The notes beneath the pieces were generated by a model, which searched no databases, was not told the origin of the DNA, and worked only from the letters and a program-made list of their open reading frames with translations. Below, piece by piece: positions 2,143-39,010 of a DNA stretch of 41,104 nucleotides. Within the stretch, counting starts at the first letter, position 1, and every line of letters begins with the position of its first letter. A program made the position numbers and the translations under genes. Origin of the DNA: Patescibacteria group bacterium (lineage in GTDB: Bacteria; Patescibacteriota; Minisyncoccia; Phycocordibacterales; UBA9973); the NCBI GenBank assembly GCA_038064635.1, contig JBBTSS010000029.1, positions 1 to 41,104 of the forward strand, read 5' to 3'.

Positions 2143-2149
2143 CAAATTG

Positions 2150-24348: not shown

Positions 24349-24432
24349 GTTTGTTTTATAAATTCTGTTCTTCTATATTTCTAACTTGTGATTATAACTA
24401 ATTTATTAAAAGTGCTTTTATGATGGTAGTAA

Positions 24433-24789: not shown

Positions 24790-24830
24790 AAAATTAAGTA
24801 AACAAAAAGCTCTGAATTGAGCTACGACTT

Positions 24831-24858
24831 ATAGTAGCAAAATATAAATAAAAGTCAA
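24831..24858 (-). promoter_or_regulatory. Internal promoter restarting the S10 genes at rpsS
   Basis: TTGACT-N16-TACTAT with extended -10 TG. Confidence 0.7.
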
Positions 24859-24869
24859 ATATAAAGAAG

Positions 24870-24902
24870 AATTGCCCTAACCTTTGAAAGCTTAGGGCAA
24901 TT
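24870..24902 (-). terminator. Terminator of the two-small-ORF cassette
   Basis: AATTGCCCTAA...TTAGGGCAATT hairpin. Confidence 0.65.
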
Positions 24903-24936
24903 TTATTAGATGAACAAAACACTTTTTCTTATTAAA

Positions 24937-25149
24937 TCAAAGTTCAGTTATTGTATAACCTAAAGGCGTACTACCAGTAAAAATAATAACCTCTATTTTT
25001 CGTAATACTCCACCAGAACTTTTTTCTCCTATTTTCTCCCCTGTCTTAAGATGTTTAGCTCTTTCTTTAATCTCAAGAAGAGTGTTCCGGTCTGTATTAG
25101 AAAGCGGACCACCACTTTCATTAACTAAGAAAGAAAAGTAATTTTTCAT
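24937..25149 (-). CDS. Small hypothetical protein (70 aa)
   Basis: ATG preceded by the cassette-type spacer TTCACTTTAAAAATTTTTAATC; fills the gap before a terminator. Confidence 0.6.
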   Translation of the reverse strand: MKNYFSFLVNESGGPLSNTDRNTLLEIKERAKHLKTGEKIGEKSSGGVLRKIEVIIFTGSTPLGYTITEL

Positions 25150-25173
25150 GATTAAAAATTTTTAAAGTGAAAG

Positions 25174-25362
25174 TTATTTTTTCTTTTTCTTTTTCTTTCC
25201 AGGAAGTTCTTTTGAAAGAAGTTCGATCACCTTTGTAATGTTCAACTTTTCTTTTCTATGTATAAAAGAAAAACATTCTCGTGACTGCTTCTTTGTACAA
25301 GTACCTCCCATCTGCCATCTACGACAGTATGTGCAATATTGCGGGTCTGCTATTCCACTCAT
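25174..25362 (-). CDS. Small Cys4 putative zinc-binding protein (62 aa) with poly-Lys tail
   Basis: CTYC...C...C; first ORF after a boxA-like GATCTTTTAACA (25391..25380). Confidence 0.6.
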   Translation of the reverse strand: MSGIADPQYCTYCRRWQMGGTCTKKQSRECFSFIHRKEKLNITKVIELLSKELPGKKKKKKK

Positions 25363-25480
25363 ATTTTTAAAGTTTAGATTGTTAAAAGATCTATTTTCAA
25401 TAAAAATCTATACCTAGAAAATAATATGTACAGTTAATTACAATAAAAATGCAATAAATAGCCGGTATGTTAAATAACAC

Positions 25481-25508
25481 TTGCAAATAAAGAGTTTTAT
25501 GGTATAGT
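25481..25508 (+). promoter_or_regulatory. Promoter of the TrmB-family gene
   Basis: TTGCAA-N16-TATAGT with extended -10 TG. Confidence 0.65.
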
Positions 25509-25520
25509 AAATAAATTATT

Positions 25521-25541
25521 GTTGTACAAAATATGTACAAC
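25521..25541. promoter_or_regulatory. Putative operator (inverted repeat)
   Basis: GTTGTACA-aaata-TGTACAAC between the -10 box and the TrmB start. Confidence 0.6.
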
Positions 25542-25551
25542 TTTTAAATTT

Positions 25552-26295
25552 ATGACTGATATAAAGAAAATATTAAATAACTTTGGATTTTCAGATAATG
25601 AAATCCGTGTATATACTGCAATGCTAAAGTCTGGCGAGGCTCCTGTGAGTCGTATCGCTACCTTAGCGAAGCTTAACCGTATAACGGTACATCATATAGT
25701 AGAGCGTCTTGAAGCTCGTGGTTTTGCTACACGATTCAATAAAGGTAATACAAAAGTAGTACGTCCTGCACATCCTATACATTTACAGAAAAGAATCCAC
25801 GAATCCTCTGCCCTATTTGATAAAGTAGTACCCGAACTCGTCGCCACCATGCGTGATGACTCAAATAAATCTAAACCTATCGTGCGTATGTATTACGGAG
25901 TAAAAGGTTTCGAAGACGCAGCAGAGGAGCTCTTAGAAAAACCAAACATAACAATAAGACATATCGGATCTTTAAAAGAAGCTCACAAATTCATCGGGGT
26001 AGCCTACGATCGTGATTATTTTGTTCCAACTCGAGTATCAAAAAATATTCATTACAAAACGATTCATTACGAAGGTGAGACAAAACCAGTACTCCGAACA
26101 ACTGACAAAGACGATTTACGAGAGGCTCGTTATATACCTAAAGGATACGATATACCTACAAATGTCTTTATCGTACCAGGCAAAACAATCATCGTCACCA
26201 CAGACCAAGAACTCATGACAGTTGTCATAGAAAGTGAAGATATAAGCAATTCAGAAATAAATAAATTTGAACTCATGTGGTCTTTACTCAAATAA
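25552..26295 (+). CDS. TrmB-family transcriptional regulator
   Basis: N-terminal wHTH (FGFSDNEIRVYTAML...RITVHHIVERLEARG), P-x-VRMYYGVKG linker, C-terminal effector domain ending FELMW. Start moved to ATG 25552. Confidence 0.85.
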   Translation: MTDIKKILNNFGFSDNEIRVYTAMLKSGEAPVSRIATLAKLNRITVHHIVERLEARGFATRFNKGNTKVVRPAHPIHLQKRIHESSALFDKVVPELVATMRDDSNKSKPIVRMYYGVKGFEDAAEELLEKPNITIRHIGSLKEAHKFIGVAYDRDYFVPTRVSKNIHYKTIHYEGETKPVLRTTDKDDLREARYIPKGYDIPTNVFIVPGKTIIVTTDQELMTVVIESEDISNSEINKFELMWSLLK

Positions 26296-26342
26296 AGACT
26301 TAATTTTGCTATTTAATATCTAAATTGATAAAATCACCATAT

Positions 26343-27389
26343 ATGAAAGAAAGTAGAACCTACCTACAAAACATAAAAAATACTCAAGAATACCCACCTA
26401 AAACAGTACTAGAGCAAGAACTTGCGATGGAGCTTCAAACATTATTGGATGATAAAAACTTTAAGGGACCTAAATTAGATATAACTTTATATTTTGGAAT
26501 TCATGCTACAGAAAATTCAGCAAAAGAATTAGCTACATATTGCAAAGAACAAAATATAGATGTATTAGCGGATGAATATGTTTATACCGGGGATATTCTT
26601 GATCCAGATTTACTAGAAAAGAAAAAAAGTTTAGCTGAAGAATCTTCAATATACGGTGAAACACTAAAAAAAGAATTAAATATCCCAACTTTTAGTCACG
26701 ACTTAACACCTGGAGACTTCTTAAGAAAAGATCTAATTCGTGGATTAATAGAAACGAGCCCCTTGGAAGATGAAATGTATCAAGACATAAGAGAAAATGA
26801 TTTCAACGAATTTTGCGAAAAGACTACTGATAAATATGAGAAATTTCGAAATATGCAAAGGACAAGAGAAGGTGTAGTTCTGCAAACTTTTGCTGAAAAA
26901 ACAGCTAAAAATATAATTTCTAACAAAGTACAAGACAAAGAAGAGTTAAAAACTCTAGTCTTTTTTGGCATAGATCACTATCAATTCTATAGAAATTTTT
27001 CTCATATACATCCTAATTTTAAAATCCATTTTCAAGACACTTATTTAAATGAATTCATTAAAAATAACCCTGGAAAGACCCCACCTTTTGCTTTAGGAAT
27101 GGCAGCTTATAATTCAATAAAAAACGAAGAAGAACAATTTATAGAACATACAGAATCTGAAAAAGATCCTTACAGGTACATAGCCCAAGAGTTAAGATTA
27201 CGACTAAACAATGAAGAGTTTCATAATTGGAAACAATCTCTTTTTGATAAAAGTCAGCCTGGAAAAGTATATGAACATATAGCAAAAGATATAGACAAAA
27301 TGGCACAAAAATACTCAGAAAAAGAAAGCTCTTATTACAAAGTAGCTAAAGAACTCTTTGATGAATTTAAAGAAGCATTGAATGGATAA
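26343..27389 (+). CDS. Hypothetical protein, possible TraB/Tiki/EreA/ChaN-like metallohydrolase
   Basis: Long ORF; ordered motifs FGIH, DVLADE, SHD, RTRE, VFFGIDH. Start moved to ATG 26343. Family call is a by-eye inference. Confidence 0.6.
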   Translation: MKESRTYLQNIKNTQEYPPKTVLEQELAMELQTLLDDKNFKGPKLDITLYFGIHATENSAKELATYCKEQNIDVLADEYVYTGDILDPDLLEKKKSLAEESSIYGETLKKELNIPTFSHDLTPGDFLRKDLIRGLIETSPLEDEMYQDIRENDFNEFCEKTTDKYEKFRNMQRTREGVVLQTFAEKTAKNIISNKVQDKEELKTLVFFGIDHYQFYRNFSHIHPNFKIHFQDTYLNEFIKNNPGKTPPFALGMAAYNSIKNEEEQFIEHTESEKDPYRYIAQELRLRLNNEEFHNWKQSLFDKSQPGKVYEHIAKDIDKMAQKYSEKESSYYKVAKELFDEFKEALNG

Positions 27390-27435
27390 AAACAAAAAAA
27401 CGACTAGGTAATACCTAGTCGTTTTTTTGTTTTTA
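27387..27435. terminator. Bidirectional terminator after rplB (24-bp perfect arms)
   Basis: TAAAAACAAAAAAACGACTAGGTA-a-TACCTAGTCGTTTTTTTGTTTTTA. Confidence 0.85.
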
Positions 27436-27437
27436 GA

Positions 27438-28283
27438 TTATTTGTTCTTCTTTCCAACTTTTCTGCGAGATACAAGGAATACATTTGAGTATTTCTTTGG
27501 ACTTCGTGTCTTTCGTCCTCCTGTAACTTTACCCCATAGAGTCTTTGGTCGCTTTGTACCACGTCCTTGTCGTCCTTCACCTCCACCGTATGGGTGATCT
27601 ACTGGGTTCATGGCAGTACCACGAACTCTTGGACGAATACCCATCCAGCGACTCTTTCCAGCCTTTCCGTAGTTTTCTAAGTGATGTTCTTCATTTGATA
27701 CGTTACCAATAGAAGCAAAACACTTTTCATTAATCTTTCGAACTTCTGTTGAAGGCATTTTGATATTTGTGTATCCATCAGCATTTGCTACTACTTGAGC
27801 AGCTATTCCTGCAGATCGAGCGATCTTCGCTCCTCCCATAGGCTTGATCTCAATGTTATACACGAATGTTCCAACTGGAATATTCTTCAAAGGCAGTCTG
27901 TTTCCTGGAGTAAGAGGTGCATTTTCTGAAACCACAAAACTGTCTCCAGTTTTAATACTCTTTGGGATAAGCACATATCTCTTTTCTCCGTCTTTATATA
28001 CTGCAAGACCTATGAATGATGTTCGGTTTGGGTCGTATTCGATAGTAGTGATCTTTGCAGGAATATCTTTTTTATCATATAGAAAATCAACTTCACGGAA
28101 AAGTCTCTTATGTCCTCCTCCTTTGTGACGCATAGTGATACGTCCAGCACTATTTCTTCCAGCGTGACGCTTAAATCCATGAGTCAAAGACTTTAGTGGA
28201 GTAGCACCTTTTGTAAGTACACCTTTGTAGGTGACTGTCGCCATTTGTCTTCTTGATTTACTTGTAGGTTTGTATTTTTTCAT
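27438..28283 (-). CDS. rplB: 50S ribosomal protein L2
   Basis: EYDPNRT, ARSAG, RGTAMNPVDHPYGGGEG. Confidence 0.99.
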   Translation of the reverse strand: MKKYKPTSKSRRQMATVTYKGVLTKGATPLKSLTHGFKRHAGRNSAGRITMRHKGGGHKRLFREVDFLYDKKDIPAKITTIEYDPNRTSFIGLAVYKDGEKRYVLIPKSIKTGDSFVVSENAPLTPGNRLPLKNIPVGTFVYNIEIKPMGGAKIARSAGIAAQVVANADGYTNIKMPSTEVRKINEKCFASIGNVSNEEHHLENYGKAGKSRWMGIRPRVRGTAMNPVDHPYGGGEGRQGRGTKRPKTLWGKVTGGRKTRSPKKYSNVFLVSRRKVGKKNK

Positions 28284-28297
28284 CGTATTTATTTATA

Positions 28298-28582
28298 TTA
28301 AACAAGTTCTATCTTGTCTCCTTTTTTCAAATATACAATAGCCTTTTTACCACCTGACTTTGTACCTTTAATACCTTTTCTTGAACGAACTTGTTTTTCT
28401 TTTACAGTAACTACGTTCACTTTTGTAGGTTTTACTTTGTATAATGCAAATACAGCTTTTTTAATTTCTGTTTTATTTGCATTATCTACAACATCAAAAG
28501 TGTAGATATTTTGTTCAGCTACCATTGAAGACTTTTCAGTCACTCTAGGATTTTTTATTAAGATTGTTGTTGCTTTTACCAT
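28298..28582 (-). CDS. rplW: 50S ribosomal protein L23
   Basis: PRVTEKS, ANKTEIKKAV, KKAIVYL. Confidence 0.97.
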   Translation of the reverse strand: MVKATTILIKNPRVTEKSSMVAEQNIYTFDVVDNANKTEIKKAVFALYKVKPTKVNVVTVKEKQVRSRKGIKGTKSGGKKAIVYLKKGDKIELV

Positions 28583-28589
28583 ATATTTA

Positions 28590-29252
28590 TTACATTCCTC
28601 GAGATTCTAAAAATTTTATACTCTCAACAGGACTTTCTATTAAAAGGTATTTGTGGTTTAGGATATCAAGTGGATTTAAATTCTTTAAGAAAACTATGTC
28701 TAATGAAGGGATATTTCTAAAAGACTTTTCTGCGTTTTCATTACGTCCAAAGAGTGCAGTAAGAACACGAGGTTTCTTTGAAGTAGACATTTCTTTGTAG
28801 CCAGTAGCTTTTGCTAAATTCTTCATTACTTCTACTCCTTCTTTTGTATTTATCTTTGAAACTGTAAGTGAATCAACAAAAACAATTTCTCCATCTTTGA
28901 GTTTCTTTGAAAGTACTGAGAAAAGAGCTTGAGCACGCATTTTCTTTGAGATTTTTCTCTTATAGTTCTTGTCTGAAAGAGGACCGTGTGTAACACCTCC
29001 ACCTACCCAGATAGGACTTCGTGAAGATCCATGACGAGCACGTCCTGTTCCTTTTTGTTTCCAAGGTTTTTTACCACCTCCAGAAACTTCACCACGATCT
29101 TTTGTATCAGCAGTACCAGCTCGTTTGTTTGAGCGCATACTTTCTACTACTTGGTGAACTAAGTCACTACGCCATTTTGCAGCAAATACTCGTGCTGGTA
29201 ACTTTATAGCTTCTACTTCTTTACCTTTTTGATTGTATATTTTTGCTTCCAT
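28590..29252 (-). CDS. rplD: 50S ribosomal protein L4
   Basis: EVSGGGKKPWKQKGTGRARHGS. Confidence 0.98.
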   Translation of the reverse strand: MEAKIYNQKGKEVEAIKLPARVFAAKWRSDLVHQVVESMRSNKRAGTADTKDRGEVSGGGKKPWKQKGTGRARHGSSRSPIWVGGGVTHGPLSDKNYKRKISKKMRAQALFSVLSKKLKDGEIVFVDSLTVSKINTKEGVEVMKNLAKATGYKEMSTSKKPRVLTALFGRNENAEKSFRNIPSLDIVFLKNLNPLDILNHKYLLIESPVESIKFLESRGM

Positions 29253-29263
29253 ATTATTTCAAA

Positions 29264-29878
29264 TTATTTGCTGACTATTTCAACTAAAGAACCTCGCACA
29301 CCAGGAATTGCACCTTTTATAAGCATAGTATTATTTTCTTGATCTAAGAAAACAACCTTCAAATTCTTTTGAGTTATTCGATCAGATCCCATTCTACCTG
29401 CCATACGCATACCTTTTGGTACGTGTGTTCGAAGACCTCCTCCGATAGAACCAGCCTCGCGCTCTGAGTGTTTCTGACCGTGTGAACGAGGACCTCCATG
29501 GAAACCATGACGTTTTACAACACCTTGGAAACCTTTACCTTTTGAAGTAGAAGAAACTTGAAGTTTATCTCCAACTGCAAAGACATCAGCTACGTTCATA
29601 GTGTCCCCTACTTTATAAGTAGGCTCTTCTTTAAGTCTAAATTCTTTTATGAATCTAAAGTTTCCTAAATCTTTTAAATGTCCTTTTACAGCTTTACTGA
29701 TGTTTTTTGCACCTTTTGTACCAAATCCAACTTGTACAGCATTGTAGCCATCTGTTGCTTTAGTCTTGACCTGAGTTACTACAGTAGGACCAGCGTTTAT
29801 TATTGTAACAGGAGTCACAACACCGTCTTCAGTAAAATACTCCATCATATTCTGTTTTACTCCAAGAATGAATTTCAT
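29264..29878 (-). CDS. rplC: 50S ribosomal protein L3
   Basis: DGYNAVQVG, SKGKGFQGVVKRH, MAGRMG. Confidence 0.98.
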   Translation of the reverse strand: MKFILGVKQNMMEYFTEDGVVTPVTIINAGPTVVTQVKTKATDGYNAVQVGFGTKGAKNISKAVKGHLKDLGNFRFIKEFRLKEEPTYKVGDTMNVADVFAVGDKLQVSSTSKGKGFQGVVKRHGFHGGPRSHGQKHSEREAGSIGGGLRTHVPKGMRMAGRMGSDRITQKNLKVVFLDQENNTMLIKGAIPGVRGSLVEIVSK

Positions 29879-29893
29879 AAATATTTTATATTC

Positions 29894-30271
29894 TTACATC
29901 ATCTTCACGTCGATATCAACTCCAGAAGGTAAAGATAGGTTAGTAAGGGCTTCTACTGTTTTTGCATTTGGGTTTACAATATCAATCAATCTTTTGTGCA
30001 CTCTCATTTCAAATTGCTCACGAGCGTTTTTGTAGATGAAAGAAGCACGGTTTACTGTGTATTTCTTGATCTCAGTAGGCAAAGGAACAGGACCTACAAC
30101 TTGTGCATCGTAACGCATAGCTGTGTCAATGATTTGTTTTACTGACGCATCCAAGATCTTGCTTTCGTAAGCTCGTACTCGAATACGTAATACAACTGTA
30201 CCATCTTCCTTCTTTGGAGCTTTTGGAGCTCCCTTCACTTTAGTCTTCTTTTTTGTTTCTGTACTTTCCAT
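29894..30271 (-). CDS. rpsJ: 30S ribosomal protein S10 / NusE (Lys-rich N-terminal extension)
   Basis: GPVPLPT, REQFEMRVHKRLIDI. Confidence 0.98.
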   Translation of the reverse strand: MESTETKKKTKVKGAPKAPKKEDGTVVLRIRVRAYESKILDASVKQIIDTAMRYDAQVVGPVPLPTEIKKYTVNRASFIYKNAREQFEMRVHKRLIDIVNPNAKTVEALTNLSLPSGVDIDVKMM

Positions 30272-30289
30272 GAAAATTAATTAAGTAAA

Positions 30290-31483
30290 TTAAGCGAGAA
30301 TTTTTGTAACAACACCTGCACCTACTGTCTTGCCTCCTTCACGAATAGCGAATTTCTGTGATTCTTCAAGAGCAACTGGAGTAACTAGTTTAACTGTGAT
30401 CTTTACGTTGTCTCCAGGCATAACCATTTCCTTGCCTTCTTCTAATACAACTTCACCGGTAACGTCAGTAGTACGGATGTAGAATTGTGGCTTGTATCCT
30501 TTGAAGAATGGAGTATGACGTCCACCTTCTTCTTTCTTTAATACGTATATTTCAGCTGTGAAATTATCGTGTGGAGTAGTAGTACCTGGCTTACATAGAA
30601 CCTGTCCACGTGTAATATCTTCTTTCTTTAGACCACGGAGAAGGATTCCAGCGTTATCTCCAGCCATACCTTCTTGAAGGTTTTTGTTAAACATTTCAAT
30701 ACCAGTAACAACTGATTTTTGAGTTGCTCTAATTCCAACAACTTCGATTTCTTCACCCACCTTTACTACTCCTCTTTCGATCTTACCTGTAACAACAGTT
30801 CCACGTCCTTCGATTGAGAAGATATCTTCAACAGGCATAAGGAAAGGCTTTGTAATATCTCTTTCGGGTACAGGGATATATGTATCAAGAGCGTTTGTAA
30901 GTTCAAGAACTTTTTGAGCCCAAGGATCGTTGACATCAGTAGCTTCAAGAGCTTTCAAAGCAGAACCACGGATAACTGGAGCACCTGCACCATCAAAACC
31001 TTGTTTTGTAAGGAGTTCACGGATTTCTTCTTCAACCATATCAATCATGTCGTTATCATCAACCATATCGCACTTGTTTAAGAATACGATAATCTTTGGC
31101 ACACCAACTTGTTTTGCTAAAAGGATGTGTTCACGAGTCTGAGGCATAGCACCGTCAGTAGCAGCAACCACAAGAATAGAACCGTCCATTTGAGCGGCAC
31201 CTGTGATCATGTTTTTGATGTAGTCAGCGTGACCAGGAGCATCGATGTGTGCGTAGTGACGAGCATCAGTAGCGTACTCGTTGTGAGAAATGTTAATAGT
31301 TATTCCACGAGCTTTTTCTTCAGGAGCGTTGTCGATTTGACTAACGTCTTTCATTCTTACAGTCTTACCTGCAAGGTTAAGAACGTTCAAAATAGCTGCT
31401 GTTAAAGTAGTCTTTCCATGGTCAACGTGACCAATTGTACCCACGTTTACGTGTGGCTTGTCTCTTTTAAATTCTTCTGCCAT
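30290..31483 (-). CDS. tuf: Elongation factor Tu
   Basis: [37 protein letters not shown]. Confidence 0.99.
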
Positions 31484-31611
31484 ATATTTATGTGTTTACC
31501 AACTAGGACTCAATATACGATCGTGTTACTAAGGCCTAATTACTAAATAAATTAAACTAATAATATTTTAAAATTACCAACTAAAAAACTGCGAAAGTGC
31601 AGTTACAGACC

Positions 31612-31639
31612 ATAATAGCAGATTAAAAAACAAAGTCAA
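31612..31639 (-). promoter_or_regulatory. Promoter of the tuf-rpsJ-...-rplB unit
   Basis: TTGACT-N16-TATTAT with extended -10 TG. Confidence 0.7.
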
Positions 31640-31643
31640 ATAA

Positions 31644-31680
31644 AAAAGCGACGGGTATCATGGAGACACCTATCGCTTTT
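31644..31680 (-). terminator. Terminator of small-ORF cassette 33082..31700
   Basis: AAAAGCGA...TCGCTTTT imperfect hairpin with U tract. Confidence 0.65.
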
Positions 31681-31699
31681 GTTTTGAATAAAAATCCTA

Positions 31700-31936
31700 C
31701 TAAGTCTGTTTCTTTAGAATGTTACCTAAAAAATCGGTTTTCGTCTTTTGGTGACAAAAATCGCAAACCCTATAATGATGCGCTCCGAGGAAACGCATAT
31801 TGGAATTTGAGCAGAATTTTTTAGCCAACCTACTTTTACATTGACATGTTGGAAGATCGCAAACGCGAACCTTCCCTCCTTGATGCCACAAAACGCTACC
31901 TAGCGTTCCTTGGCAAAATGGTCGCGGACATTCCAT
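31700..31936 (-). CDS. Small Cys-rich putative zinc-ribbon protein (78 aa)
   Basis: CPRPFC, CDLPTCQC, C, CDFC (8 Cys); cassette-type spacer upstream. Confidence 0.65.
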   Translation of the reverse strand: MECPRPFCQGTLGSVLWHQGGKVRVCDLPTCQCKSRLAKKFCSNSNMRFLGAHHYRVCDFCHQKTKTDFLGNILKKQT

Positions 31937-31962
31937 AATCTAGTTTTTTAAAAGTGAAAATT

Positions 31963-32478
31963 TTATTTCCTTCCTTTGTAAACCCAAATATTGATTTCCG
32001 TAATTCCAGTTCTTTTTTCGTTGTTTCTGTACTGATTGACCTTGTGGACAAAAAAGTTTTCTTTACTGACACGAGGGGTATAACCTTTAAGAATTAAAAA
32101 TCCCACAACCCTTGTACCAAGAGCCAAGTCTTCATCCCCTGAAGAAAAAGGTTCTGTAAATACAGATTCCGCGATAAGTTCATAACCAGCTCTTGGTGAA
32201 TAACGACTGTAAATAACATTAAACTGTCGTAAGTTACCTTCACTTACAGTCTTCTTTAGCAACAAAAGACAGGAATGTCCTACTTTCTCAATAAGCTTTT
32301 TTTCCTGGAATTTCCAGGAGCTAAACCTTCCCAAAATAAGAGTCTGCCTAGAGGTATGAATAGCCGCGTAATTTCCTGCAATGATTTTTGCGACAAAATT
32401 TACCTGGTCAGCGATAGTGTTTGTTTTTTGAACCTTACCTTTTAGTAAATATTTCAAAAAAAATGCTCGAACGCTCAT
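31963..32478 (-). CDS. Hypothetical protein (171 aa)
   Basis: Tiles head-to-tail with neighbours; cassette-type spacer TTCACCCATTAAAATTTTTAACACC upstream. Confidence 0.65.
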   Translation of the reverse strand: MSVRAFFLKYLLKGKVQKTNTIADQVNFVAKIIAGNYAAIHTSRQTLILGRFSSWKFQEKKLIEKVGHSCLLLLKKTVSEGNLRQFNVIYSRYSPRAGYELIAESVFTEPFSSGDEDLALGTRVVGFLILKGYTPRVSKENFFVHKVNQYRNNEKRTGITEINIWVYKGRK

Positions 32479-32506
32479 GGTGTTAAAAATTTTAATGGGT
32501 GAAATT

Positions 32507-32818
32507 TTATTTTTTTGTGTATTCGGTACTATTCAACTTCCATTGTCTTTTGCACAAAACTTTCGCCTTGTACATAAGTACATTTCGATGAAAAGAAAAA
32601 ATACCCGCCCCTATAAATACAGTAAGGACTTCTGTATCACCCCACTTCCAAGGAATTGGAACCATGTACCTTGTAATCATAATATCGTACTTCTTAGCAA
32701 AATCGTCCACAATCCTTAAACCACTTATCGGAAAGTACGTTGGGGTATTCAATTTAACAAGAATCATTTTGGCGTATTCTGCGGCAAGTTCGTTTATTAT
32801 CTCTTCTTTCTTTTTCAT
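32507..32818 (-). CDS. Small hypothetical protein (103 aa), paralog family member A
   Basis: Aligns by eye with 34753..35058 and 35085..35357. Confidence 0.75.
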   Translation of the reverse strand: MKKKEEIINELAAEYAKMILVKLNTPTYFPISGLRIVDDFAKKYDIMITRYMVPIPWKWGDTEVLTVFIGAGIFSFHRNVLMYKAKVLCKRQWKLNSTEYTKK

Positions 32819-32881
32819 GGAGAAAAATTTTTTACAAATAACACTCCTTTTTAGGTATGTGCCTTTGTATGGTGAGAAGTT

Positions 32882-33082
32882 TTATTTTTTCTTAAAGAAT
32901 GGTAACACAACCGTAAATTTCTTTGGAGCAAGGTCAGGAAATTGAACATTCCTGGAATCAAGACTCCAACCCTTTTTCTGCATTTTAGTAGTAACGTTCA
33001 CAGCAACTCTAGAAACTCTACCAGAGAAGCCTTTTCTTTTATCCGCAATAATTATTTTTGTTGTCTTTTCTTCCTTTGCCAT
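32882..33082 (-). CDS. Small basic hypothetical protein (66 aa)
   Basis: First ORF after the promoter/boxA leader at 33175..33125. Confidence 0.6.
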   Translation of the reverse strand: MAKEEKTTKIIIADKRKGFSGRVSRVAVNVTTKMQKKGWSLDSRNVQFPDLAPKKFTVVLPFFKKK

Positions 33083-33124
33083 AGCGAGATTATTTTGTGG
33101 ACATAATGTCCGGGTTAGAAGGAT

Positions 33125-33175
33125 GTTTTCAAAGAGGTATTTTGCTCACTATACAATACATGAATATAAATGCAA
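33125..33175 (-). promoter_or_regulatory. Cassette promoter plus boxA-like leader
   Basis: TTGCAT-N16-TATAGT-GAGCAAAATACCTCTTTGAAAAC. Confidence 0.65.
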
Positions 33176-33221
33176 TAGACCCCAATTTGCAGAATGAACA
33201 TTCTATTGTAGAATTGTACCA

Positions 33222-34028
33222 ATGCCTAAAAAACTAAAACTCATATCTCTAAACATAGAAAAACATCACCACCTCCCTATTGTTCTAGATTTTATAAAAA
33301 AAGAAAAACCAGACATAATATGTCTCCAAGAAATATATATAGAAACTTTTGAATCATTTAAAAAAGAGTTAGAAATGAATGGGGTTTTTTGTCATCAAGT
33401 GATGTATCAAACAGAAGACGGAATATCTCATTCTGAAGGCCTGGCAATACTCACTCCCTTGTCAATAAATTCTTCACAAGCCATACCATATACCACAAAT
33501 GACGAAAATGAATCTAAAGAAATCTCAACAAAAAACTTACCAGAAAAAAATCAAGACAAAAATTACATAAACAAACAACACCATAGAAAACTTCTGGTAG
33601 CAGAGATATCAAATGAAGATCAGAAATTCAACATATCAACGACTCACTTTACTTGGGCTTTTTATGGACATTTTGATAAAGAAAAAAAAGAATTCGTCTG
33701 GGATACAGATGAAAATACCGTAGAAGAGCAATTAAAAGATATGAGAAAGATATTTGATATATTTGATACTTTTACAGATATTGTCTTTTGTGCGGACCTA
33801 AATGCTCCACGAGGTAAAAAAGTTTTCGACATGGTTGCAAATAAACTCAAAGACAATATTCCTCTAGAATATAAAACAAGCATAGATGAAAATCTTCATA
33901 GGCTGGGTGCCCCACTTCCCTTGATGGTAGACGGTGTGTTTACAACACAAGAATACAAAGTAACAAACGTAATATTAAAAAGTGGTATCAGCGACCACTT
34001 GGCAGTTATCTGTGAAATAAGTAAATAA
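33222..34028 (+). CDS. Endonuclease/exonuclease/phosphatase (EEP) family protein
   Basis: SLNI, DIICLQEI, TTHF, ADLN, VDG, ISDHLAV motifs. Confidence 0.9.
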   Translation: MPKKLKLISLNIEKHHHLPIVLDFIKKEKPDIICLQEIYIETFESFKKELEMNGVFCHQVMYQTEDGISHSEGLAILTPLSINSSQAIPYTTNDENESKEISTKNLPEKNQDKNYINKQHHRKLLVAEISNEDQKFNISTTHFTWAFYGHFDKEKKEFVWDTDENTVEEQLKDMRKIFDIFDTFTDIVFCADLNAPRGKKVFDMVANKLKDNIPLEYKTSIDENLHRLGAPLPLMVDGVFTTQEYKVTNVILKSGISDHLAVICEISK

Positions 34029-34030
34029 AA

Positions 34031-34057
34031 AGCCCGGCCGTTTTACACGACAGGGCT
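34031..34057. terminator. Terminator between convergent EEP gene and small-ORF cassette
   Basis: AGCCC...GGGCT hairpin preceded by an A run. Confidence 0.5.
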
Positions 34058-34082
34058 AGGTGAATAAATGTTTCATTTTTTG

Positions 34083-34262
34083 TTAACGGTTGTAAAAACC
34101 TCTGCGCTGCATCCATTTATGCAAATCCTCCCCGGGCTGAAGCCTTAGTGCGGCCTGCTCATCCCTCTCTGCTTTAGAGAGTTTGTTTTTAACTGGTTTA
34201 ACAACTTGAATTTTTACATTTTTAGAATTTTTTAATGGCGAGGCACTTTGTTTCTTTGCCAT
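34083..34262 (-). CDS. Small basic hypothetical protein (59 aa)
   Basis: MAKKQSASP...; ATG 34262 preceded by CTCACCTTCAAATTTTTTGATT. Confidence 0.6.
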   Translation of the reverse strand: MAKKQSASPLKNSKNVKIQVVKPVKNKLSKAERDEQAALRLQPGEDLHKWMQRRGFYNR

Positions 34263-34289
34263 AATCAAAAAATTTGAAGGTGAGTAAAA

Positions 34290-34397
34290 TTAGATATGAA
34301 ACAACAAACTGAAGACCAGACTCATGGTCTTTTTTTCTTTTAGTTTTCTTAAAGTCTCTTCGGAGACTACTACTTTTTTAACTACTTTCTTTGCCAT
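34290..34397 (-). CDS. 35-aa ORF not in the track: MAKKVVKKVVVSEETLRKLKEKKTMSLVFSLLFHI
   Basis: Translated by hand; first ORF after promoter 34504..34477; basic N-terminus and hydrophobic C-terminus. Confidence 0.5.
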   Translation of the reverse strand: MAKKVVKKVVVSEETLRKLKEKKTMSLVFSLLFHI

Positions 34398-34476
34398 AAT
34401 AAATATAGAGTTTTTACTTTTTTAAAAGTATATAAATGAAAAATATATTTTCGAAGAAATGAAGTATTTTTTAGAT

Positions 34477-34504
34477 ACTATACAACAGTTCTAAATATAT
34501 GCAA
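34477..34504 (-). promoter_or_regulatory. Cassette promoter
   Basis: TTGCAT-N16-TATAGT followed by AAAAAATAC and a degenerate boxA TTCTTCGAAAA. Confidence 0.6.
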
Positions 34505-34512
34505 ATAAAAAA

Positions 34513-34533
34513 GGCCTTTCATTACAAAAGGCC
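34513..34533 (-). terminator. Terminator of cassette 35357..34561
   Basis: GGCCTTT...AAAGGCC hairpin followed by a U run on the minus strand. Confidence 0.65.
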
Positions 34534-34560
34534 CTGTTTGTTTGTGATTGAATAAAGAAT

Positions 34561-34731
34561 TCACGACTGAAGAGATTTTAAGGTTGCGTTAATTGCCTTT
34601 ACCCTCTTCAACATGTCATTTCTTTGATTTTTTAGCTTAGTGCTATTCGTGATTTGTCGAATTTTTCCTAACAACTTGCCTTTTTCATCAACAAGCTGGA
34701 AGAATAGAGTTCTTTTTTCAGTCTCTCTCAT
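34561..34731 (-). CDS. 56-aa ORF not in the track: MRETEKRTLFFQLVDEKGKLLGKIRQITNSTKLKNQRNDMLKRVKAINATLKSLQS
   Basis: Translated by hand; fills the gap between 34753 and the terminator; helical and basic. Confidence 0.55.
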   Translation of the reverse strand: MRETEKRTLFFQLVDEKGKLLGKIRQITNSTKLKNQRNDMLKRVKAINATLKSLQS

Positions 34732-34752
34732 GATGTTAGTAGTTTTAAAAAT

Positions 34753-35058
34753 TTAAGTTTTTACTTTTGTAGTTTGACCTGCAATCCATTGTCCTTTAGT
34801 TGGACCATAGCCACGCATGATTGAATAACTTTTTTTGAAAGAATAGGAATACTCCCCTATACGTACAACAAGTTTTTCGTTCTTCGCAAAGAGCTTCGTT
34901 GTCGAGACAAACTCAATGTCTGTCGAAAAGTTTTGACCTTTAGCAAAGTTTCTAGCGATAGTTGCAGGACTTTGGTCAGCAAGTTGCTTCATGTTAAGTC
35001 GAGTAAGCAACATTGCGGCTTTAGCGTCTGAGCTGTGCTGATTCATGAAAGTGTTCAT
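34753..35058 (-). CDS. Small hypothetical protein (101 aa), paralog family member B
   Basis: Aligns with A and C; cassette-type spacer TTCACCCTTTAAATTTTAAAATC. Confidence 0.75.
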   Translation of the reverse strand: MNTFMNQHSSDAKAAMLLTRLNMKQLADQSPATIARNFAKGQNFSTDIEFVSTTKLFAKNEKLVVRIGEYSYSFKKSYSIMRGYGPTKGQWIAGQTTKVKT

Positions 35059-35084
35059 GATTTTAAAATTTAAAGGGTGAACTA

Positions 35085-35357
35085 TTATGAATTTACTTTT
35101 TTCCAGGAAGTTACATGGATGGAAAAAATTAAATTTCTTATTTCGCGTTGAAATATTTGTCGAACTGATCCCATTTTTACAAAAAGTCTTTCTTTTCTTG
35201 AGTTGCCAAATTTACAAGTCACAAATTGCACATCGATAAGAAGTGCATATTTTTTACCAAATTCAACTATAAATCTTTTTCCACACTCTTCATTTTGAGG
35301 CAAGTTTAAGTCCATTAAAATGACCCCAAACCAGTAATTTAAACTTTTAATGTCCAT
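35085..35357 (-). CDS. Small hypothetical protein (90 aa), paralog family member C
   Basis: Aligns with A and B; first ORF after the promoter/boxA leader. Confidence 0.75.
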   Translation of the reverse strand: MDIKSLNYWFGVILMDLNLPQNEECGKRFIVEFGKKYALLIDVQFVTCKFGNSRKERLFVKMGSVRQIFQREIRNLIFSIHVTSWKKVNS

Positions 35358-35412
35358 AAGAATACAGAAGTTTATACCAACAAATAAGATTTGTGGCGTT
35401 GTTATTGTTTTA

Positions 35413-35461
35413 TTTCAAAGATGTATTTGCCTCACTATACAATATTTTCAATAAAAAACAA
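35413..35461 (-). promoter_or_regulatory. Cassette promoter plus boxA-like leader
   Basis: TTGTTT-N16-TATAGT-GAGGCAAATACATCTTTGAAA; 29/32 identical to 33127..33158. Confidence 0.65.
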
Positions 35462-35491
35462 GCCTATCTTAGGTATTGCCTAAAACAGGCT
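35461..35491 (-). terminator. Terminator after the ABC ATPase
   Basis: AGCCT..TTAGG/CCTAA..AGGCT imperfect hairpin followed by T-rich sequence. Confidence 0.5.
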
Positions 35492-35499
35492 ATTCCTAT

Positions 35500-36180
35500 C
35501 TATTTTTTGTTCATTATATCGCTAACTATATTCCCGTCTGCCATGGTGATAGTACGGTGGGCCATCTTTGCATACTCTTCTTCATGGGTAACCATAATAA
35601 TGGTCTGTCCTTCTTGGTTTAATTTTACAAAAGCTTCGATAACATGGGCTGAAGTCTCAGAGTCTAAGTTCGCAGTAGGCTCATCAGCGAATATTATCTT
35701 TGGATCATGTGATATAGCACGAGCGATCGACACACGCTGTTGTTGACCTCCAGAGAGTGCAGAAGGCAAGTTATTCATACGGTCGAGAAGCCCAACTTTA
35801 TCTAGGGCTTTTTTAGCTTTTTCATTTGCCTCTTTTTTATCATAACCTTGCATGAGAAGTGGAAGCATTGTGTTTTCAAGCGCAGTAAGAGATGGAAGTA
35901 TCGCATAGTCTTGGAAGATATACCCCAAATCATTTAATCTTGAAAGAGTTCTATCCTTTTCGTTTTGTCTTGTTGCCTCAGTTCCATCGATATATACTTC
36001 CCCGCTCGTAGGAATGTCTAGTAGACCAAGTTGGTATAAAAGTGTAGACTTTCCACTTCCTGACTTACCGGTAACAGTTAGAAATTGTCCTTGAGGTACA
36101 GAAAAAGAAAGATCATTCAAGGCAATGATTTCTTGGTCTCCACTTTGGAATATTTTTTTAAGATTTTTTACTTCAATCAT
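35500..36180 (-). CDS. ABC transporter ATP-binding protein (MacB/LolD-like)
   Basis: GKSGSGKS, LSGGQQQRV, ADEPTANLD, VTH. Confidence 0.95.
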   Translation of the reverse strand: MIEVKNLKKIFQSGDQEIIALNDLSFSVPQGQFLTVTGKSGSGKSTLLYQLGLLDIPTSGEVYIDGTEATRQNEKDRTLSRLNDLGYIFQDYAILPSLTALENTMLPLLMQGYDKKEANEKAKKALDKVGLLDRMNNLPSALSGGQQQRVSIARAISHDPKIIFADEPTANLDSETSAHVIEAFVKLNQEGQTIIMVTHEEEYAKMAHRTITMADGNIVSDIMNKK

Positions 36181-36194
36181 TTTATTATTTAAAT

Positions 36195-37469
36195 TTATCT
36201 TCCTAAGATTGCACTCAATGTATTTTGTTTAATAACAATATTTGCAGGTATATATCCAGCTATCATTGTGGTTATCAACAATATAAAAGCTTGAGACATT
36301 GCTCCAGGCACAGTAGCGACAAGAATACCGTCAGAGAATGGAAAGTTTATAGGGTTTGCCGCAAAGTATGGCTTGATCAAACCAAAAACTAAAACCATAC
36401 CAAAAATAATACCTAGAGAAGCATAGATAGTAGCCTGATACATATAAGAATACAAAATAGCTTTTTTATTTATTCCAATACCTTTCAAAATTCCAATAAA
36501 TCTTCTGCGAGTAATAGCGTTTACGAATATAACAATAAATATCGTGATAGAAGCAACCACAAGTCCAATACCTGAAATAACCGTACCTAATATTCTAAAG
36601 GTTTCTTTTATATCTTTTAAAAATTTAGGGAAAGCTTCATCTGCTGTCTGTACACGAGCATAGTCTCCTACTCCACTATCCAATAAAAACTTCTGTGCTT
36701 GAAAAGGATCTGTGCCAGGAAGTATCTGTATGGCGATAGTATTTGCATCTAGATCTGTACGGTTTAAAAGATGCCGTGCTTCACTTTCTATCATAACGAG
36801 AGACGTATCAAATTCATCTACTTTAGATGAGATAATTCCTTTCACGAAATATTCTTTTTCTGTTTCTCCGGCAGTAACCTTCACACGTGAACCCACTTCA
36901 ACATTTTTCAAAGTCTGAAAACCAGGTGCTTCAATAGGAGTAAATTCATAAAGTAAATTCTTTCCTATTAAAATACTATCACCGTCATTTGGACTCAAAT
37001 AGCTACCTCGTATTACAAATTTTGAAATACCAGAAAATCTCTCTTCAGCAATAGGGTCTATCCCTAACACAGAGGCTCCTGCTCCATCACGTTTTTCACC
37101 TGGAGCGATAGTCTCTCGATAATTAGACTCAACTCTTGCACCACCCGTATATCTAACAGCATGGTTTTTATATCCTGGAATTGTTTTAACTATTTTTACA
37201 ACTTCTGGAGTTTGAAGTATTGATGCACGATTTAAAAAAGGTGAAATGACGATATCTCCTATTGCATACTTCTTCTGAGCATCTTCTGAACCTTGAATAA
37301 GGCCTACCAAAATTCCAGAAACAACAATAAGGTTTAAAAAAGTTAACGTCATCACTAAAACTATAAGAGACGTCGTCCACACATTTGCACGGCGAAGTTC
37401 ACGACGGGCTAGAAACCAGCCGACGGATACATTTTTCGAAAAAGAATTTTGAGCTTTTTTTTCTATCAT
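36195..37469 (-). CDS. ABC transporter permease (MacB/FtsX/LolE-like)
   Basis: One TM, a large extracytoplasmic domain, then three TMs; RRRFIGILKGIG motif. Confidence 0.9.
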   Translation of the reverse strand: MIEKKAQNSFSKNVSVGWFLARRELRRANVWTTSLIVLVMTLTFLNLIVVSGILVGLIQGSEDAQKKYAIGDIVISPFLNRASILQTPEVVKIVKTIPGYKNHAVRYTGGARVESNYRETIAPGEKRDGAGASVLGIDPIAEERFSGISKFVIRGSYLSPNDGDSILIGKNLLYEFTPIEAPGFQTLKNVEVGSRVKVTAGETEKEYFVKGIISSKVDEFDTSLVMIESEARHLLNRTDLDANTIAIQILPGTDPFQAQKFLLDSGVGDYARVQTADEAFPKFLKDIKETFRILGTVISGIGLVVASITIFIVIFVNAITRRRFIGILKGIGINKKAILYSYMYQATIYASLGIIFGMVLVFGLIKPYFAANPINFPFSDGILVATVPGAMSQAFILLITTMIAGYIPANIVIKQNTLSAILGR

Positions 37470-39010
37470 TAGTTCTTTGTAACTATCGCTATATAGTCTA
37501 TGCTTGTCACTCCAGAAAGTACTTCTACCATATTCCCATCCCCTACTAGACCAGTCACTACTTCAACTTCTTTATATTTTTTACTTTTTTCGTTAGTAAC
37601 AACAGAAACATAAGACTTGCCTTCTTTATCAAAGATAGCGGCTTTAGGAATAGAAAAAACATTTTCTTTGTTCAAAGTTACAATACTAACTTCAGAATTC
37701 ATTCCGGGACGAATGTTTGGATCTTTTTCATTTATAGATACTTTGATTTTGTAATTCACAATACCATCAGTAGTTACTGAAGAAGGGTCTATCTGCACCA
37801 CTACTCCAGTAAATTTCGCCAAGTCACCCAAAGCATCAAAAGTTACGTCTACTGGTTGATTGAGTGTTATATTTGCAATATTTGATTCATTTATCAATAC
37901 TTCCACGTATAGATTTTCAACGTCTTGGATATCGATAACTCCAGTTTTTGCATCAGCGATCTCCCCGTCTTTTATATCAATCTTCGTTACTGTTCCAGCT
38001 TTTGGTGCACGTATAATATTATTTTCATAATTTGCTTGAGCTTGTTCGAGACCTCCTTCTGCTGATACTACATCAGCACGAGCAAGATCAATGTCAGAAT
38101 TTCTTGCTTTAGCAAGTTTCAAATCTAACTCTGCGTTCTTTTGATCAATCAAAGCAGTAGCGGAAGAAAGTGCTACTTCGCGTGTCTCAATAGCTGACTT
38201 GTATGCATTTTCATTTGCTAGATAATCAGATGCATTTTTATTTGGAATACTGATAGTGAAATTTGTACCACTTAAATTAGAGCTTGTAGGAAAAACAAGA
38301 TACAGACCGGTACTGCCTACCATTTGAGGAGTTGTAGTGCTCACAGAACCAAACTCTGTCGCCAAACCACTAGTCGAGAACTTTAAACCGTCACCTGTAC
38401 TATATACAGATAAGTTTATCGTGCCCTCTTTACCGAGTTTATAAACACCACTTATAGTAGGAGCACTCGTAGAAACACCAGAACCGACAGGAGTAGCTTC
38501 AAAAACTGAATTTAATACTTTATTATATGCATTTGCTACTAATGTGTCTTGCTGACTTTTAGTACTTTGATAATCTCGCTTTGCATTCGTTAAAGCAACT
38601 TGCGCTAAATTAATCTCTTCATTTGTCGCACCTTCGATAACCTTTTGAAGTCTCGCTTTTGCTGCAAGTAAAGACCCACGTGCTTCTGTGACTTTCGCAT
38701 ACTCGCTCTTTGAGTCAAGCATAGCTAAAACCTGGCCGACAGACACCTTGTCTCCTACTTTTACAGAAACTTTTTTGACTACTCCTTGTTTATTGAAAAA
38801 CAAAGAAAGATCCGTCTCGGAAGTGACTTGTCCTGTCGCTCGTACTGTTTGTATTAAATTACCAGTTTTTGATTCAACTTTTGCAAAAGTAATATTGTCT
38901 CCATTTTTCAAAAATAGAACAACCAAAACTACTACAAGCAAAAAAGCTGGTACAAGAAAATTTTTCCGAAGAAAAAATAACTTAGTTTTTTCTAATGTGT
39001 TAGGGTTCAT
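37469..39010 (-). CDS. Efflux adaptor / membrane fusion protein (MacA/HlyD-like)
   Basis: N-terminal anchor, GVVKKVSVKVGDKVSVGQVL and IRAPKAGTV lipoyl halves, coiled coils, IRPGMNSEV. Confidence 0.9.
   Translation of the reverse strand: MNPNTLEKTKLFFLRKNFLVPAFLLVVVLVVLFLKNGDNITFAKVESKTGNLIQTVRATGQVTSETDLSLFFNKQGVVKKVSVKVGDKVSVGQVLAMLDSKSEYAKVTEARGSLLAAKARLQKVIEGATNEEINLAQVALTNAKRDYQSTKSQQDTLVANAYNKVLNSVFEATPVGSGVSTSAPTISGVYKLGKEGTINLSVYSTGDGLKFSTSGLATEFGSVSTTTPQMVGSTGLYLVFPTSSNLSGTNFTISIPNKNASDYLANENAYKSAIETREVALSSATALIDQKNAELDLKLAKARNSDIDLARADVVSAEGGLEQAQANYENNIIRAPKAGTVTKIDIKDGEIADAKTGVIDIQDVENLYVEVLINESNIANITLNQPVDVTFDALGDLAKFTGVVVQIDPSSVTTDGIVNYKIKVSINEKDPNIRPGMNSEVSIVTLNKENVFSIPKAAIFDKEGKSYVSVVTNEKSKKYKEVEVVTGLVGDGNMVEVLSGVTSIDYIAIVTKN

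Follow-up and report, generated by a model that had tools for sequence, protein, structure and literature searches.

A candidate replaceable slot ahead of tuf with self-contained units of small orphan genes in a Parcubacteria-type bacterium

Why does a bacterium with a tiny genome keep, next to tuf, a series of well-built predicted expression units for small proteins that are almost unique to it? This question is raised by a stretch of 41,104 nucleotides (hereafter the window) that corresponds to an entire contig (C29; JBBTSS010000029.1) of the Patescibacteria group assembly GCA_038064635.1, a genome of 765 kb in 53 contigs with 35% GC and 93.6% completeness. From its gene content and rRNA features, the host is a Parcubacteria-type bacterium of the candidate phyla radiation (CPR). 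An earlier sequence-only reading of the window had proposed a system of tandem, insulated micro-operons of small basic orphan proteins under shared control, located between fusA and tuf. The analysis presented here leads to another picture, to which we give a probability of roughly 60%: the 3.85 kb between an HlyD-FtsX-ABC operon and the tuf promoter would constitute a replaceable accessory slot, holding a gene of the endonuclease/exonuclease/phosphatase (EEP) family and three self-contained transcription units of small open reading frames (ORFs).

Comparison of the cassette content with that of relatives, a check proposed by the sequence-only reading, revealed that these 3.85 kb are missing from the closest relative sampled (G262) and that the content of the slot differs across 20 relatives. 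The fusA and tuf of G262 are 97% and 94% identical to those of the window, the flanks show about 84% nucleotide identity, and homology stops at position 35500 and resumes at 31640. Between these two points, G262 has 370 bp with a promoter, an unrelated ORF of 54 amino acids (aa) and a terminator; thus, the stretch previously singled out coincides with an interspecies indel. In the more distant G002 (fusA 93% identical), the gene order is fusA, HlyD, FtsX, ABC, EEP, a 416-aa CHU_C protein, small ORFs, an orthologue of the first ORF of the units (u1a), a 46-aa ORF and tuf, and among the 20 genomes of the genus the fusA-tuf gap ranges from empty (G007) to 4-5 unrelated genes. Both the comparison set of G262 and the 75-genome tallies of the genus used below include a genome flagged as unpublished (G060), on which no specific claim rests. 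Nothing shows that the units work jointly, and what the closest relative has in this slot is one ORF of unrelated sequence; therefore, the locus reads better as a replaceable accessory slot than as a joint system.

Within the slot, three co-oriented units were found on the minus strand between 31640 and 35491, with their nine ORFs, of 35 to 171 aa and tiled within each unit, exactly at the coordinates claimed before. Unit 1 comprises u1a (35357-35085; 90 aa, pI 9.8), founding member of a small alpha2-beta5 family (type A), its distant paralogue u1b (35058-34753; 101 aa, type B), whose start lies behind a TCAC tetranucleotide (TCAC-N18-ATG), and u1c (34731-34561; 56 aa), a basic orphan with a weak coding signal and no TCAC junction. 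Unit 2 contains u2a (34397-34290; 35 aa), with an internal hairpin at 34331-34312, and u2b (34262-34083; 59 aa), with a TCAC-N17-ATG start; these two ORFs are the least certain as genes. Unit 3 is formed by u3a (33082-32882; 66 aa), u3b (32818-32507; 103 aa, type B of the family), the orphan u3c (32478-31963; 171 aa, TCAC junction at 32502) and u3d (31936-31700; 78 aa with 8 Cys, TCAC junction at 31957), the latter with the weakest coding signal. Junctions between ORFs measure 20-30 nt (about 25 nt) and have no inverted repeats. The products are small, basic and cytoplasmic by prediction, with no evident signal peptide or membrane segment, and the label "basic" was borne out by a pI of 9.1-10.8 in 11 of 11 ORFs, counting the two of a fourth unit described below.

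The EEP gene (33222-34028, plus strand), coding for a 268-aa protein that matches Pfam PF03372 with an E of 4.9e-5, just under the cut-off, is located between units 2 and 3. It is present in 5 of the 60 genus genomes searched, among them G002, whose corresponding slot has a copy with 50% identity, and is absent from the slot of G262; it belongs, like the units, to the variable slot. The slot of G002 also holds the gene of the 416-aa protein (L013:10774-12024), in which Pfam detects CHU_C, a sorting domain of type IX secretion (E 9.5e-9) that is unexpected in a CPR bacterium.

Ahead of each of the three units, a promoter of the form TTG(TTT/CAT)-N16-TATAGT is predicted, as had been read before. 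P1 (35413-35461, minus strand) consists of TTGTTT (35461-35456), N16 and TATAGT (35439-35434), followed by the leader box TCTTTGAAA (35421-35413). P3 (33127-33175, minus strand) has TTGCAT (33175-33170), N16, TATAGT (33153-33148) and the same leader box (33135-33127), and P2 (34440-34504, minus strand) has TTGCAT (34504-34499), N16 and TATAGT (34482-34477), with AAAATAC and TTCTTCGAAAA in its leader. Across the -10 box and leader, P1 and P3 are identical in 29 of 32 nt and P2 is a looser copy; P3 is a duplicate of the P1 promoter-leader. A TATAGT with AAATAC downstream of it within 12 nt is present at 11 places in the genome, and three of these are at the slot; the 9-mer TTGTATAGT has 11 occurrences over both strands, and the same leader, with TATAGTGAG, AAATA and TTGAAATAAAA, precedes the u1a orthologue of G002. 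A generic promoter scan of positions 24000-36500 detected 35 promoter-like sites against 40.2 ± 6.3 in shuffled sequences, that is, no excess, and flagged P2 only among the three; therefore, the case for these promoters is made by their mutual similarity and position. The complete promoter-leader was not found elsewhere in this genome, and the slots of the 20 relatives have no such promoter-plus-box arrangement apart from one unrelated site. Consequently, the "shared control" of the earlier proposal shrinks to the P1/P3 pair, with P2 as a weaker case.

As terminators, five hairpins followed by U-runs were found with folding energies of -15.5 to -21.9 kcal/mol and z-scores of -3.2 to -6.7. The terminator of the upstream HlyD-FtsX-ABC operon (T0; 35450-35496, minus strand; -19.2 kcal/mol, z -4.8) extends its U-tail into the -35 box of P1, that of unit 1 (T1; 34500-34545, minus strand; -15.5 kcal/mol, z -3.2) overlaps the -35 box of P2 with its tail, and that of unit 3 (T3; 31636-31692, minus strand; -21.9 kcal/mol, z -6.7) does so with the -35 box of the tuf promoter (31639-31612), which is conserved. 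T0 was also picked up by a terminator scan. Unit 2 ends in T2 (34022-34078, minus strand; -17 kcal/mol, z -3.4), so placed that this terminator and the EEP gene end stand back to back, and unit 4 in T4 (24912-24858, minus strand), also identified by folding. Because the U-tail meets the next -35 box in three cases (T0/P1, T1/P2 and T3/tuf), "insulated" is a fair word for the units. Each of them would be transcribed from its own sigma-70-type promoter, and the abutting terminators would keep the flanking ABC and tuf operons insulated.

A first rival explanation is that the ORFs are mostly not genes, but chance frames in non-coding or decaying DNA lying between real promoters and terminators, or else RNA genes. 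In favour of this, u1c, u2a and u3d have negative hexamer coding scores (eight ORFs score 0.01-0.24 per codon), in a range that about a quarter to half of spurious ORFs reach as well, u2a has an internal hairpin, and u3d was not found as a called protein in a collection of 5.8 billion. Moreover, seven of the 11 ORFs (u1c, u2a, u2b, u3a, u3c, u3d and u4b) are shown or likely orphans. Within the protein collection, u3b matched itself only; u3c has near-identical copies only, and no credible match in 100 relatives (best E 0.0024, 16.7 bits); u1a had no credible match in 300 family genomes drawn without G002, u4b and u3a had none in 75 genus genomes, and the remaining small ORFs matched nothing in the slots of the 21 relatives with which they were compared. 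On the other side, ATG-initiated ORFs of at least 50 aa cover 0.64 of the minus strand in units 1 and 2, 0.81 in unit 3 and 0.77 in unit 4, compared to means of 0.06, 0.08 and 0.02, respectively, in 1000 dinucleotide-type shuffles, none of which reached the observed values; a 171-aa frame did not appear in any of the 1000 shuffles of this 35% GC DNA. With a periodic Markov model trained on the long ORFs of the genome, the annotated frame was the top of six in 11 of 11 cases. The u1a family is conserved and folds confidently by prediction, u3c, u1a and u1b were called as proteins in independent assemblies, and a search of positions 24500-36000 against Rfam returned rows at chance level, with nothing relevant at E<=1. 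The scores of most ORFs are intermediate between those of held-out true genes (median 0.26) and embedded spurious ORFs (median -0.23), and u1a, a certain gene, scores only 0.09; therefore, most of the ORFs are taken as genes with atypical usage. The units are species-specific, real coding DNA, and we regard the chance-frame explanation as very unlikely.

The claim that three ORFs are paralogs proved correct, as u1b matches u3b by BLASTP with an E of 9e-6 and the u1a profile detects u3b (E 5.6e-4) and u1b (E 0.02), with the alignments of the profile built from u1a and its G002 orthologue all in one register. This orthologue, the sole one, is 49% identical and lies in the same slot of G002 behind the same leader. 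The units are modular and insulated, as described before, and part of the repertoire grew by local duplication, as seen from these paralogs and from the near-identical promoter-leaders of P1 and P3. When a four-sequence profile was run against 1.84 billion representatives, seven proteins were recovered at E<=0.001: the three of the window, P0004 (89 aa, 6e-18), P0005 (84 aa, 8e-10), P0007 (102 aa, 6e-5) and a 759-aa repeat protein, which was discounted. P0004 and P0005 are relatives of u1a, and P0007 is u3b-like; P0004 and P0007 are singletons from one source whose longest contig has 3,115 bp, and are probably encoded on one contig. The 171-aa u3c was considered as a further member and discarded as unrelated, since the family profile gave an E of 0.24; its AlphaFold2 model from a single sequence was uninformative (pLDDT 35.5).

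An AlphaFold2 model of the u1a family, obtained from a seven-sequence alignment, reached a pLDDT of 92.7 and a pTM of 0.81, and predicts two N-terminal helices followed by a five-strand antiparallel meander. Foldseek searches of the model against PDB and BFVD gave no row at E<=0.001, the family profile found nothing below an E of 0.5 among PDB sequences, none of the seven members matched Pfam at E<=10, and ESM Atlas had no usable match for u1a or u3c. The best VIA-align rows corresponded to gp25/TssE baseplate proteins (Z 6.0 with rmsd 3.0 over 75 aligned residues, then 5.4, 5.1 and 5.1), with further weak rows for pseudopilins, cystatin- or NTF2-like designs, GraT (Z 4.9, rmsd 2.4, 60 aligned) and an archaeal RelE (Z 4.5); all are below 8 and below the level that unrelated models reach. 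Thus, u1a, u1b and u3b make up a very small family, which has four relatives outside the window, with a confidently predicted domain and no clear known fold. When a complex between type A (u1a alignment) and type B (u1b alignment) was predicted, the score was 0.00 against a mark of 0.32, evidence in neither direction.

The two N-terminal helices followed by an antiparallel sheet, the pairing of small basic genes and the GraT and RelE rows suggest another explanation, namely that the units are two-gene addiction modules of the toxin-antitoxin type, or something similar, with a RelE/ParE-like domain at their core. However, these Z values lie within the noise band, there is no match in Pfam, NCBIfam or PADLOC even at E 1-10, the adjacent genes are paralogous instead of being a toxin and an unrelated antidote, and G002 has the type A gene alone. 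The chances of this explanation are slight.

The gp25/TssE rows bear on a different alternative, in which the locus would be what is left of an integrated mobile element, such as a prophage or a plasmid, with surviving small ORFs of early-gene type. Small, packed and co-oriented orphans with their own promoters and terminators, resembling phage morons, and a locus that varies between species would be expected from it as well. Against it, the baseplate scores stay below those of unrelated models and no tail genes lie nearby. No integrase or transposase was detected by Pfam among the ORFs of the region, in agreement with the earlier statement, and no phage hallmark gene, plasmid, defence or toxin signature was found at the locus. 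No PHROG family appeared at E<0.03, and neither the u1a family nor u3c had a relative in 2.9 million viral contigs. The slot has no flanking repeats (blastn-short against the genome), the window has no tRNA and its tmRNA is 29 kb away, and the GC content of the slot (0.33-0.38) is like that of the rest of the contig (0.31-0.40). No test that was run identifies the locus as what remains of a prophage or plasmid, and such an origin is considered unlikely. The units are compositionally native and have no Shine-Dalgarno sites.

The replaceable-slot reading gains further weight from similar inserts at other loci. In the S10 operon, split between rplB and rpsS (24863-27437), a TrmB-like regulator (25519-26295), a 354-aa orphan (26325-27389) and unit 4 (24858-25420, minus strand) were found, the latter with u4a (25362-25174, minus strand; 62 aa), u4b (25149-24937, minus strand; 70 aa, TCAC-N17-ATG start) and T4. 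The earlier assertion of a similar unit at 25362-24937 thus stands for its two ORFs, the TCAC junction and the terminator; the promoter is not of the TTG-N16-TATAGT type, and TATAGA is followed by TCTTTTAACAA in its leader. This L2-S19 slot measures 130 bp in G002, and in G262 it contains the regulator (74% nucleotide identity) and no 354-aa gene, with two other small ORFs replacing unit 4. One of these G262 ORFs (L062:1020-1240) has in common with u4b the TCAC start module, here with N15 before the ATG, and the first five codons, MKNYF (25149-25175 in the window), and nothing more, so that it looks as if the gene body had been swapped behind a retained 5' end.

Three further units of small ORFs with the TCAC junction are inserts relative to G262: yebC and ruvC are separated by 555 bp here and by 2 bp there, argS and ileS by 804 bp and 34 bp, and a third locus has 760 bp against 61 bp; all ten proteins scanned from these three inserts were blank in Pfam. 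Insertion between genes that are adjacent in relatives was seen against G262, G027 and G002. By these comparisons, like units appear to have been inserted between conserved neighbours at L2-S19, yebC-ruvC, argS-ileS and one more locus. Hence, of the architecture expected to recur elsewhere, the TCAC junction and the small orphan ORFs between conserved genes do so and the promoter-leader does not.

A perfect palindrome, GTTGTACAAAATATGTACAAC (25521-25541), lies just ahead of the likely ATG of the TrmB-like regulator; considered as a shared operator, it was dismissed, being unique in the genome except for a 24-nt match in one other cassette. In addition, more tandem small orphan ORFs occur in the genome (G000 C1:40982-42201, C11:11347-11979 and C10:1993-2559), including a pair of 68 and 69 aa with C-termini alike by eye (...KKVFAKLP and ...KKVFKKLP) and a run of 41, 69, 92 and 80 aa, with one junction identical in 23 of 25 positions to that between u1a and u1b.

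The TCAC spacer, described earlier as present at most ORF junctions, was found 17-20 nt ahead of the ATG in five of the seven internal junctions of units 1-4. In the sixth (u3a/u3b) TCAC lies right behind the stop codon, yet 49 nt ahead of the ATG, and the u1b/u1c junction has none. Genome-wide, TCAC(C/T) located 14-21 nt ahead of an ATG with an A/T-rich spacer precedes 28 of 847 candidate ORFs, corresponding to 14 of 257 ORFs below 130 aa versus 14 of 590 larger ones, rplF and other housekeeping genes included (odds ratio 2.4, p 0.03). It mostly lies 3-12 nt past the preceding stop codon. TCAC is no hallmark of the locus; it is a general, low-frequency start context of the genome. The strict form, TTCACYTTWAAA-N8-16-ATG, occurs nine times in this genome (once in a reversed-pattern control) and twice in G262, and is absent from G002, G007 and G019. 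At three other loci of this genome it is the mark of inserts with small orphan genes, none of which is present in G262.

Regarding how the internal cistrons could be translated, no GGAG/AGGA (Shine-Dalgarno) peak was detected upstream of 675 ORFs. The 16S and 23S rRNA genes of the window's own genome are not assembled; the 16S tails of five of five relatives (L021, L022, L023, L044 and L045) lack CCUCC and end in GGA(T/A)TAATTCAA(A/T)TTGAAA. Loss of the anti-Shine-Dalgarno motif is known for a subgroup of Parcubacteria (PMC9297842). For 105 of 673 ORFs, against 17 in a distal control, TATAAT lies no more than 22 nt from the ATG; its position at -12 to -7 of many starts suggests widespread leaderless mRNAs, a subject on which a literature search found no paper for this group. 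As the anti-Shine-Dalgarno tail is lost and many first genes look leaderless, downstream cistrons seem to use an A/T-rich context. They would start through it right past the preceding stop, often with TCAC 17-20 nt before the ATG. TCAC itself may be a coupling or re-initiation context that is heavily used by the cassettes.

Three other roles for TCAC were considered and set aside. Pairing with the 16S 3' tail amounts to a 5-nt match (UUUCA/UGAAA) in the tails of the five relatives and is unconvincing; AUUUCACC also matches GGUGAAAU, conserved in helix 23, but this sequence is universal and the match was kept as an idea only; and reading the reverse strand of the junctions as GGTGA-like Shine-Dalgarno sites is at odds with the poor scores of the plus-strand frames in a lineage without the anti-Shine-Dalgarno tail.

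A bolder version would place the start context at the centre, with lineage-specific cassettes that spread carrying a 5' module, TTCAC(Y)TTWAAA with the ATG 8-16 nt further on, which replaces the Shine-Dalgarno sequence, and with u1a, u1b and u3b as a new fold-level family expanding there. This module usually sits just past the preceding stop codon, and ribosomes that lack the anti-Shine-Dalgarno tail would use it as a signal for tethering or re-initiation. We regard this version as doubtful.

The leader boxes of the units raise the question of a link to translation. The T/C-rich boxes TCTTTGAAA (P1 and P3), TTCTTCGAAAA (P2) and TCTTTTAACAA (unit 4) resemble a box, (A/T)CTTTGA(C/T)AA, of the rRNA leaders of three relatives, and in variable form the box is present in four of four unit leaders and in that of the G002 orthologue, 12-22 nt past the -10 box. 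A boxA/Nus-factor leader consensus is known from the rRNA operons of Escherichia coli and Bacillus subtilis; the boxes described here may be of this kind, and NusB is encoded in the genome, but they front protein-coding mini-operons and the match is short. By this likeness, TCTTTGAAA may recruit NusB/S10. Taken further, the products could be factors that associate with ribosomes or with translation and share, through boxA-like leaders, the regulation of the tuf/S10 cluster, as in the translation-modulating option of the sequence-only reading. This would fit the location of the units inside the str/S10 supercluster, co-oriented with tuf, the basic nature of all products and the Cys pairs of u3d and u4a, as found in zinc-ribbon ribosomal proteins. 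However, the proteins are limited to one species or few genomes, unlike core translation factors, strong terminators separate the units from tuf, and a high pI is expected of any frame in A/T-rich DNA. Such a role has little probability.

As for the genes flanking the slot, all on the minus strand, the order is fusA (41098-39038), the HlyD-family adaptor (39010-37469), the FtsX/MacB-type permease (37469-36195), the ABC ATPase (36180-35500) and, after the slot, tuf (31483-30290) followed by the S10 operon. Therefore, the location "between fusA and tuf" holds for the tuf side, whereas the other flank is the ABC-exporter operon, with fusA 3.5 kb further upstream. This position suggests that the units might encode exported peptides or immunity partners of the transporter, since a tripartite MacB-type exporter lies immediately upstream of them in the same orientation, and MacB-type pumps move peptides. 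Nevertheless, G262 keeps the transporter at 85-96% identity without any unit, a terminator of -19 kcal/mol separates it from unit 1, and no leader-peptide motif or hydrophobic segment was found in the products, all of which makes such a partnership highly improbable.

Over 33368-37975, a metagenome contig of 4.6 kb shows 99.6% identity, with 19 differences, none of them in units 1 and 2; ten fall in the EEP gene and six in a 43-bp stretch of the ABC gene, a clustering in flanking genes that is the only hint of flank recombination. In one study, three groundwater runs (X1, X2 and X4) gave contigs that contained parts of the units at depths of 5-9 with 0-2 differences, and a run from a second study (X5) yielded short pieces, namely 151-nt contigs in unit 3 and others in the EEP gene. 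Variant forms were also noticed: a low-depth strain variant with small indels that span the stop codon of u1a and the TCAC junction (35060-35085), and a u3c variant protein (P0009) that diverges past residue 118, both of which hint at ongoing change inside units. In one run, a form was seen with 25600-26545 replaced by 29 nt.

With these results in hand, the content of the slot would probably turn over by recombination in the conserved flanks, and the products are proposed, with low confidence, to be accessory proteins that evolve fast and act inside the cell, such as those that take part in conflicts with phages or mobile elements or in regulation, rather than in housekeeping. The host-interaction, immunity or translation-modulating roles suggested by the sequence-only reading are guesses. 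Several points weigh against this reading. Given the negative coding scores, some of the ORFs, above all u2a_35 and u3d_78, may not be genes, and u3d_78 is absent from the protein collection. The small proteins gave nothing below E 0.001 in Pfam, PHROGs, PADLOC or NCBIfam that would favour the proposed functions. The dN/dS ratio is out of reach, with zero differences in units 1 and 2 of the near-identical strain and a sole orthologue that is too diverged, and there was no RNA run among the sequencing runs listed as holding the stretch. The direction of the change, insertion here or deletion in G262, is a matter of parsimony on few genomes, and the EEP gene and u1a, common to the distant G002 and absent from G262, require either loss in G262 or transfer. 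The TCAC context is statistically weak outside this contig, and the possible boxA reading is a core match of just 6-9 nt.

The units can also be compared with known forms of gene variation. The concept of phage morons reportedly comes from Juhala, Hendrix and colleagues; as with morons, these are autonomous predicted promoter-gene-terminator units located between genes that are adjacent in relatives and encoding small proteins, mostly of unknown function, but they reside in a bacterial chromosome without phage genes and with native base composition, and several have two to four cistrons. Their neighbours (fusA, the ABC exporter, tuf and ribosomal protein genes) do not indicate phage residence. 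Minimal mobile elements of Neisseria and the flexible genomic islets of streamlined bacteria are known cases of slot-type variation, with which the locus coincides in having one slot, conserved flanks, different genes by species and neither mobility gene nor terminal repeats; the comparison here is, however, between species at about 84% nucleotide identity and not between strains, and exchange by transformation and flank recombination would apply by analogy. Integron cassette arrays are likewise tandem, co-oriented and made mostly of small orphan ORFs, in contrast to which the junctions of about 25 nt have no attC-like inverted repeats and each unit has its own promoter and terminator; the ORFs of the region, to which the search for intI was limited, include no integrase. 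Species-specific prokaryotic orphan genes, as treated in PMC11293555, are similarly small and taxonomically restricted, with a debated origin, external or native; the genes described here differ in forming insulated tandem units with local duplication in a recombination-prone slot.

A tiny CPR genome thus keeps predicted expression units for near-unique proteins even inside the most conserved bacterial gene cluster. If expressed, they would make a tractable case for seeing how a streamlined, symbiont-like genome acquires new small genes and tries them out, at a concrete site that can be followed over time in aquifer metagenomes. The TCAC context is a specific candidate for the translation of internal cistrons in a lineage without the anti-Shine-Dalgarno tail, and the u1a family, a small, confidently folding predicted domain to which no fold is assigned, is a cheap target for structure and binding assays.

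Finally, two features of the window outside the slot deserve mention. A tmRNA gene (2149-2547, minus strand), with a tag peptide ending in ...ALRLA, is the sole tRNA-like gene of the window. The tuf leader (31484-31640, minus strand), conserved in G002 and G262, shows a TTGACT-N16-TATTAT promoter followed directly by a hairpin with a U-run (31604-31587) and then by about 100 nt up to the ATG; this leader has no Rfam match and may be an attenuator or regulatory leader.

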